Source: a virus (taxonomy: Duplodnaviria > Heunggongvirae > Uroviricota > Caudoviricetes). From it: a stretch of 21,580 nucleotides of DNA. The notes beneath the pieces were generated by a model. That model had not been told where the DNA came from. It saw only the letters and a program-made list of their open reading frames with translations, and did no database searches. The DNA is taken from positions 1 through 21,580 of the IMG/VR virus record IMGVR_UViG_2724679140_000004, one strand, 5' to 3'. The stretch's first letter is position 1. Each line of letters begins with the position of its first letter. A program made the position numbers and the translations under genes. Positions 15,961 to 16,204 of the stretch are shown piece after piece.

Positions 15961-16204
15961 GCCGTAAGCTCGCCCCTGAAAGGCTCTGTGGTTTTTGATG
16001 TGCGCCGGACGTGGCGCAAAGAAATGAAATAAGACTTACCTGAAATTAAGGTTAATCTGAGGATTTAAACCATTTATAATGCTTAGTAATATAAATACGT
16101 CTCTCTGGAGGAGAGAGATGCTTATTCTTCTTCATGGACTTTGTCCCGCGGCTTTAATCCGACAGCCGCGCCTTTTTTCGCCAATATAAACCGGGTTGAA
16201 CTCA

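Follow-up and report, generated by a model that had tools for sequence, protein, structure and literature searches.

Hfq-dependent small RNAs (sRNAs) are usually built from a promoter, a 5' hairpin, a single-stranded stretch and a Rho-independent terminator with a U tail. PasA and PasC of EPEC E2348/69 are short Hfq-dependent sRNAs of prophages with a 3' terminator and a U-tail (Pearl Mizrahi et al. 2021, PMC8550237; Zhu, Shabalina and Storz 2026, bioRxiv 10.64898/2026.05.13.724894). HnrS (EcOnc10-12) of EHEC prophages is likewise short, terminator-ended and Hfq-associated, occurs in multiple copies in the lambdoid late region, shows perfect complementarity to the final 15 nt of mazF and an enrichment in LEE-positive strains (Poudyal et al. 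2026, PMC13502914). The STnc100/StxS-type PR' leader RNA (RF02076) is a prophage late-region RNA too.

The window analysed here is the whole stretch of 21,580 nt, a lambdoid prophage whose late genes are read from the minus strand. Our results indicate that positions ~16064-16178 (+) probably constitute a gene for an sRNA of the Hfq-dependent type, antisense to the late transcript. The slot and the orientation of this gene are the same as those of PasA and PasC, directly upstream of holin/lysozyme genes and on the strand opposite to the late genes, and the neighbourhood, with TerB, RusA, STnc100, sok and tRNAs, is also alike. The original prediction for this region was a divergent plus-strand start with a TATAAT promoter and a GGAGG-spaced ATG opening a 23-codon ORF, which might represent a small protein, a leader peptide or the source of an antisense RNA. 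The plus-strand transcription unit facing away from the TerB/lysis genes was retained in our analysis, with a different promoter and a different 3' end and without the ORF, and the antisense RNA came closest among the three products suggested.

Genomic context of the locus

The neighbouring features are as follows, the late order running from right to left on the minus strand:

21.2-21.6 kb: hok/sok module at the early end of the window
21399-21573 (-): sok (Rfam match, 114.6 bits)
21252-21461 (-): ORF of the Hok/gef family, at the early end of the window
Between the hok/sok module and the Q gene (-): DUF968 and RusA genes
18259-19077 (-): Q antiterminator gene
17701-17952 (-): apparent C-terminal fragment of a DNA methylase gene, between the Q gene (18259-19077) and STnc100
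17437-17650 (-): STnc100 late-leader RNA (RF02076; Rfam match, 109 bits)
Between STnc100 and the TerB-family gene (-): two units, each bounded by a terminator
16257-16338 (-): tRNA-like element, tRNA-Tyr(GTA)-like
16211-16230 (-): intrinsic terminator AGGCTCGCTTCGGCGAGCTT followed by TTTGTAT
3' part of the late order (-): TerB-family gene, two holin genes and an M15 endolysin gene, then HNH and terminase genes

The studied element lies in a gap of ~300 nt that is bounded by the TerB gene and by the last terminator on the minus strand (16211-16230). This terminator, identified in a terminator scan, closes the unit holding the tRNA-like element and faces the sRNA terminator described below. The tRNA-like element was recognized by ARAGORN only in its relaxed pseudogene mode; the default settings gave no tRNA in the window, and the element (16257-16338, minus strand) had no match to the Rfam tRNA model. 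The plus strand opposite to it carries a CA-rich stretch, CACCACAAAACAACAAUAC.

Some further peculiarities of the late region were observed. At the position of the methylase fragment, relatives carry a full methylase gene. The second minus-strand unit (~16400-16540) has a strong terminator, GCCAGCC...GGCTGGC followed by T8 (16400-16423), no notable coding potential and Rfam matches at noise level only, and may be another late-region sRNA. Compared with UMNK88 and 025542-1, the 5' end of the TerB-family gene (15860-15960, minus strand) has one extra A in an A-run and a 2-nt deletion, which put the start codon of the relatives (equivalent to 15892) out of frame; the ORF in the window opens at 15960, giving an N-terminal extension of ~24 residues.

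Distribution of the conserved block

When window positions 15850-16450 were used as a megablast query, only 15991-16187 (~190 nt) proved to be widely common, with 82-98% identity in ~296-297 E. coli genomes and two phage records. Two pattern scans located the block in at least 119 IMG/VR contigs, and about 5% of E. coli genomes contain a prophage-type copy. Among other species, a genome contig scan detected the exact phage-type motif in only one species representative, E. ruysiae, and the nmpC-essD intergenic region of the K-12 prophage DLP12 holds no copy. The edges of the block are sharp, with flanks on both sides that are unrelated between copies. In annotated relatives a tRNA cluster lies upstream of the block and the block lies directly upstream of the first gene of the lysis cassette, which may be an essD-type holin cassette, a two-holin/M15 cassette or TerB plus holins. 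Indeed, lysis genes were located immediately to the left and on the opposite strand in 112/112 copies with an informative left flank (136 instances), and on the same strand or to the right of the block in none of these 112. A search of 15991-16190 against Rfam 15 on either strand gave no match, at the gathering threshold or at E values up to 5.

A conserved putative promoter with a variable spacer

The predicted features of the block are as follows:

15997-16063: upstream part conserved in all phage-type copies, with an A/T-rich stretch and hairpin A
16001-16018: hairpin A, palindromic TGCGCC-N6-GGCGCA, with a few compensatory changes
16043-16072: imperfect palindrome GGTTAAT-N7-ATTTAAACC, overlapping the -35 hexamer and present in both phage and core copies
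~16064-16178 (+): predicted sRNA gene, with a body of ~80 nt at roughly 16099-16178
16064-16069 (+): predicted -35 hexamer, TTTAAA
16075-16080 (+): TATAAT of the original prediction, in the variable spacer of the conserved promoter
16087-16092 (+): predicted -10 hexamer, TAATAT
16099-16119 (+): 5' stem-loop GUCUCUCU / GGAGG / AGAGAGAU, predicted by folding, with a covarying stem
16120-16135 (+): single-stranded U/C-rich stretch GCUUAUUCUUCUUCAU, unpaired in the minimum-energy and consensus folds
16136-16146 (+): mini-hairpin GGAC-UUU-GUCC
16147-16178 (+): intrinsic terminator, CGCGGCU (16147-53) / AGCCGCG (16164-70) with a 10-nt loop, then CC and U6 (16173-78)
16118-16189 (+): 23-codon ORF, a chance ORF over the sRNA body and terminator

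The -35 hexamer TTTAAA is present in 59 of the 60 distinct variants, with TTTGAA in the other, and is the same in the homologous copy of E. coli K-12. The -10 hexamer reads TA..AT in 60/60 variants, as TAGTAT, TAATAT, TATGAT or TAGAAT. The spacer between them is exactly 17 nt in all 60 variants, the K-12 copy included, and occurs in 10 different sequences. The hexamers are moderate, each with 4/6 matches. Conserved hexamers around a variable spacer of fixed length are the pattern expected of a real promoter. A promoter of its own is predicted for the sRNA, with the TTTAAA-N17-TAnnAT geometry in 60/60 variants, and its 5' end is predicted from the sequence to lie near 16099.

The TATAAT at 16075-16080 falls within the variable spacer of this promoter. 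It is kept in only one of the 60 distinct variants, namely this window, and is replaced elsewhere by TCTGAA, TTTAAA or TTTAAT; moreover, TATAAT occurs 6 times in the window, where 5.6 occurrences are expected. It is therefore not supported as the promoter of the locus. The same sRNA might still be started in the window from TATAAT (near 16087), instead of or besides the conserved promoter, which would make its 5' end ~12 nt longer. This perfect -10 hexamer, 17 nt from TTAATC, differs from the sequence of the closest relatives by one T-to-A substitution (TTTTTAAT to TTTATAAT). However, TTAATC is a poor -35 with 3/6 matches, the consensus promoter scan made no call at this TATAAT, and the start cannot be ancestral since the hexamer is unique to the window. 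We regard such a start as unlikely, and TATAAT may be an extra, strain-specific -10.

In phage copies, the degree of conservation of the 65 nt preceding the conserved promoter (15997-16063) matches that of the RNA. The K-12 copy shares these positions only from ~16030 rightward, 15997-16029 being missing there. This part could be promoter-upstream or operator DNA, or form an RNA structure in the minus-strand late leader, and the palindrome at 16043-16072 could be a candidate binding site for a regulator.

Structure and covariation of the predicted sRNA

In the window, 16099-16181 folds into an 8-bp 5' stem, 16 unpaired bases, the mini-hairpin, a 7-bp terminator and U6. The fold energy differs only mildly from that of shuffled sequences (z -1.8) and the opposite strand folds equally well, so thermodynamics alone decides nothing. 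A consensus fold was calculated with RNAalifold from 42 distinct transcripts and comprises three helices, the 5' hairpin, the GGAC-UUU-GUCC mini-hairpin and the terminator hairpin followed by the U-tract. The mini-hairpin is identical in 42/42 distinct transcripts including that of K-12. The 5' hairpin is built from at least six stem sequences at the same position in relatives (UCUCUCU/AGAGAGA, UCUCC/GGAGA, UCCCC/GGGGG, GCCU/AGGC, CUCC/GGAG and GCUUU/AAAGC), and the terminator stem shows a compensatory exchange between GGCU/AGCC and GGUC/GACC. In the consensus fold 95.5% of cells are paired, against 38-54% in controls with slid partners. Both sides have changed in five pairs, and 0/500 shuffles matched the covariation score, a statistic to be read as an upper bound because the sequences are related and it is thus overstated. 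A covariance model built from the alignment of this study (R1) matches the window at 16095-16181 (+) with 92.8 bits.

The pairs themselves favour the plus strand. Of 670 cells, 640 pair canonically on the plus strand and 612 on the minus strand. For pair 9-29 the numbers of sequences with canonical pairing are 36 and 16, respectively, and in 22 sequences one pair is a U.G wobble that would turn into A.C if read from the opposite strand. In addition, a U-tract follows the terminator hairpin on the plus strand only. The 7-bp GC-rich stem followed by U6 is a Rho-independent terminator of the kind found in Hfq-dependent sRNAs, and the RNA contains no conserved ORF, as is usual in that class. The 3' end is predicted from the terminator model to lie at ~16178. 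The commonest phage variant has a weak U-tract, CUACUUUUC.

The U/C-rich stretch at 16120-16135 is highly conserved among phage-type copies and differs in the K-12 copy. Given its unpaired state in the folds, GCUUAUUCUUCUUCAU is a candidate seed or Hfq-contact region.

In many relatives, a second GGAC(U)UUGUCC-like mini-hairpin, a hairpin and a T-run follow the first terminator in tandem on the same strand (for example L003 3186-3254 and L105 6948-7016; columns ~245-310 of alignment A1). This arrangement, which is absent from the window, either arose by duplication of part of the sRNA's 3' half or serves as a back-up terminator.

A homologue in the E. coli core genome

A sensitive blastn search with window positions 16030-16185 detected a homologue in 5417/5426 complete E. 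coli genomes (99.8%), always between yodB (or zinT) and tRNA-serU. The identity is ~71% over 157 nt and rises to ~90% over the mini-hairpin and terminator. In K-12 MG1655 the copy lies at about 2043064-2043181 (+), with a TTTAAA-N17-TATGAT promoter and the mini-hairpin and terminator as in the phage. Its 5' hairpin is at the same place but has another sequence, and its single-stranded region differs, which suggests that the targets of the K-12 and phage alleles probably differ; no lysis genes are nearby. RefSeq has no feature at this copy, and it matched no Rfam family.

Published transcriptome data cover this copy. In Term-seq of cells in LB, an 'orphan' 3' end coincided with the last U of the tract, 2043181 (+), at OD600 2.0 and was missing at OD 0.4 (Adams et al. 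2021, PMC7815308, supplementary file 1). Another 'orphan' 3' end of the same data set, K-12 2044735 (+), follows a hairpin and a T-run between asnT and yeeJ, near serU (PMC7815308). The Hfq RIL-seq data re-analysed by Bar et al. 2021 (PMC8175672 Table S1) list 'yodB.serU.IGR' as a node, with 39 chimeric fragments and a single partner in exponential phase and, in a second condition, 33 chimeric fragments and two partners. Its SIC scores of 0 and 0.5 mean that it is always the second RNA of the chimera, the sRNA position (PMC8175672). The RIL-seq classifier gave the node, with its 1-2 partners, a low sRNA score of 0.01-0.05 (PMC8175672), and it was consequently not put forward as an sRNA candidate. 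In the literature, the exact RNA sequence string matched no paper and a 'yodB serU sRNA' went unmentioned in main texts; the EPEC RIL-seq supplements have no yodB/serU entry among the entries listed.

Since yodB is co-directional with the K-12 copy, the mapped 3' end could belong to a long yodB 3'UTR instead of an independent gene. An own promoter is argued for by E. coli C, where the promoter and the RNA are retained although yodB is absent, and by the phage copies, which have no co-directional upstream gene. If confirmed, the family would be one missed by Rfam and RefSeq despite a copy in K-12 and in 99.8% of complete E. coli genomes, and a core sRNA linked to paralogues in prophage lysis regions would provide a clean case of sRNA movement between phage and chromosome with a change of seed.

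Proposed function of the prophage RNA

Taken together, the window probably encodes an sRNA as follows. A sigma-70-type promoter, TTTAAA-N17-TAATAT, would drive the synthesis of an ~80-nt RNA (16099-16178) whose gene lies just ahead of the TerB/holin/endolysin cassette and runs antisense to, and away from, the Q-dependent late transcript. The prophage copy is predicted to be transcribed from the conserved promoter and to bind Hfq, the mapped 3' end and the Hfq link being those of the K-12 homologue, and may regulate mRNAs in trans through its single-stranded U/C-rich stretch. By position, in the minus-strand order Q - STnc100 - ... - TerB - holins, the RNA is fully complementary to the leader of the co-located late mRNA, and in the lysogen it may reduce leaky read-through into the lysis genes, either by convergent transcription or by forming a duplex. 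Such a guard role is plausible from the arrangement of the sequence, because every phage copy is complementary to the late leader, upstream of the lethal lysis genes and downstream of tRNA genes.

A more elaborate form of this proposal, which we consider quite unlikely as a whole, takes the RNA as the prophage allele of an unnamed core Hfq sRNA that both guards the holin genes in cis and re-programs envelope genes, including ompF, in trans. In cis, convergent transcription and an ~80-bp duplex with the late leader would keep upstream tRNA/moron read-through from the holin genes. In trans, the phage-type single-stranded stretch would act on the ribosome-binding region of ompF and lower a phage-receptor porin. 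A phage-receptor porin is also lowered by the lc/nmpC-IpeX module, which occupies the equivalent slot of PA-2/DLP12. The best predicted ompF duplexes pair K-12 CUCUUGGAAA with ompF +132 and the phage-type seeds with ompF -19..+4, and in target prediction these duplexes were no better than those of shuffled seeds. The exponential-phase partner of 'yodB.serU.IGR' has k = 15 and SIC = 0.094324, the exact values of the ompF CDS row (PMC8175672), from which we infer that this partner is ompF. As a target, ompF is a lead only.

Alternative explanations

The block might be used on the minus strand only and give the Q-dependent late mRNA a structured leader, which could for instance serve to process or stabilise the lysis-gene message, with no plus-strand RNA from the prophage. 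Its constant position directly upstream of the lysis cassette, whatever the cassette type, would suit such a leader, as would the folding of the minus strand, as good as that of the plus strand, and the slight advantage of the minus strand in the pairing of hairpin A (282 of 311 cells, against 268 on the plus strand). However, the U-tract, the U.G wobbles and the promoter geometry fit the plus strand, the core copy is kept in 99.8% of E. coli genomes without lysis genes, and the K-12 homologue has a plus-strand 3' end and Hfq chimeras. A minus-strand role alone is therefore improbable, though the roles of a minus-strand leader and a plus-strand sRNA are not mutually exclusive. No minus-strand promoter was found inside the block by eye or in the promoter scan.

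It is still less probable that the block is a 'linker' at a mosaic boundary, kept for recombination of lambdoid modules, or a decaying functionless relic in the prophage of the window. The sharp boundaries with unrelated flanks on both sides are what a linker would give, but the compensatory changes, the invariant hexamers around a variable spacer and the expression of the K-12 homologue argue for selection on an RNA gene.

As for coding potential, the TATAAT (16075-16080), the GGAGG (16107-16111), the 6-nt gap and the ATG at 16118 are all present in the sequence, and the 23 codons read MLILLHGLCPAALIRQPRLFSPI with a stop at 16187-16189. Conservation of this frame in relatives, proposed as a check in the original prediction, was not found. 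The ATG is kept in 10/60 distinct variants (ATA in 43, AAA or AAT in the rest) and the GGAGG in 11/60, and the tail of the peptide shifts frame with T-run indels. The GGAGG forms the loop of the perfect hairpin GUCUCUCU-GGAGG-AGAGAGAU, with the A and U of the ATG inside its covarying stem, and the promoter/terminator scan also flagged CGTCTCTCTGGAGGAGAGAGATG as a hairpin. Codons 10-20 are the intrinsic terminator CGCGGCU-loop-AGCCGCG followed by U6, and substitutions in the ORF region follow RNA pairing. GGAGG-N4-9-ATG occurs 5 times in the window against 4.9 expected, so the caution that the signals may be coincidental was well founded, both motifs being at chance frequency and poorly kept in relatives. 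A 27-codon ORF on the minus strand (16052-16135) is broken in relatives by 1-nt indels within the hairpin. The conserved block is thus non-coding, the ORFs of both strands being unconserved. Hence an mRNA from the 16075 TATAAT that is translated into a 23-residue small protein or leader peptide and runs on across the tRNA-like element is barely credible despite its well-spaced motifs, since the Shine-Dalgarno sequence sits in a hairpin loop, the substitutions are compensatory for RNA stems, and the terminator inside the ORF (16147-16178) should stop transcription at ~16178, well before the end near 16340 that had been envisaged. The 23-codon ORF should not be annotated as a gene.

Comparison with known prophage RNAs

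Membership of the PasA/PasC family was rejected because neither the sequences nor the covariance model showed any resemblance. When the intergenic regions of PasA and PasC were compared with the window by BLAST, only chance words matched, and covariance model R1 had no match in the PasA/PasC loci (L087 and L088). PasB was also rejected as a relative, as it is not homologous and sits among tail genes. The upstream late-region cargo is a sialate esterase gene for PasA and tRNA genes for the studied element, both in the same location with respect to the lysis genes. An enrichment in pathogenic lineages has been described for the Pas sRNAs, whereas nearly all E. coli genomes contain a core-genome paralogue of the studied element.

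HnrS resembles the studied element in its late-region location and build but has a different sequence and is not the same RNA; the studied element is not known to contain a mazF-complementary stretch. STnc100, of which the window also holds a copy, is encoded on the late strand, arises by termination at tR' and does not resemble the studied element.

The studied element is therefore probably an sRNA of the prophage late-region kind rather than a member of a described family, a kind of gene established by PasA and PasC in the same slot and orientation. Unrelated sRNAs, PasA/PasC on the one hand and the studied element on the other, would occupy the antisense slot upstream of the holin genes, which suggests that the position itself is functional, for example in guarding the lysis genes or in timing lysis.
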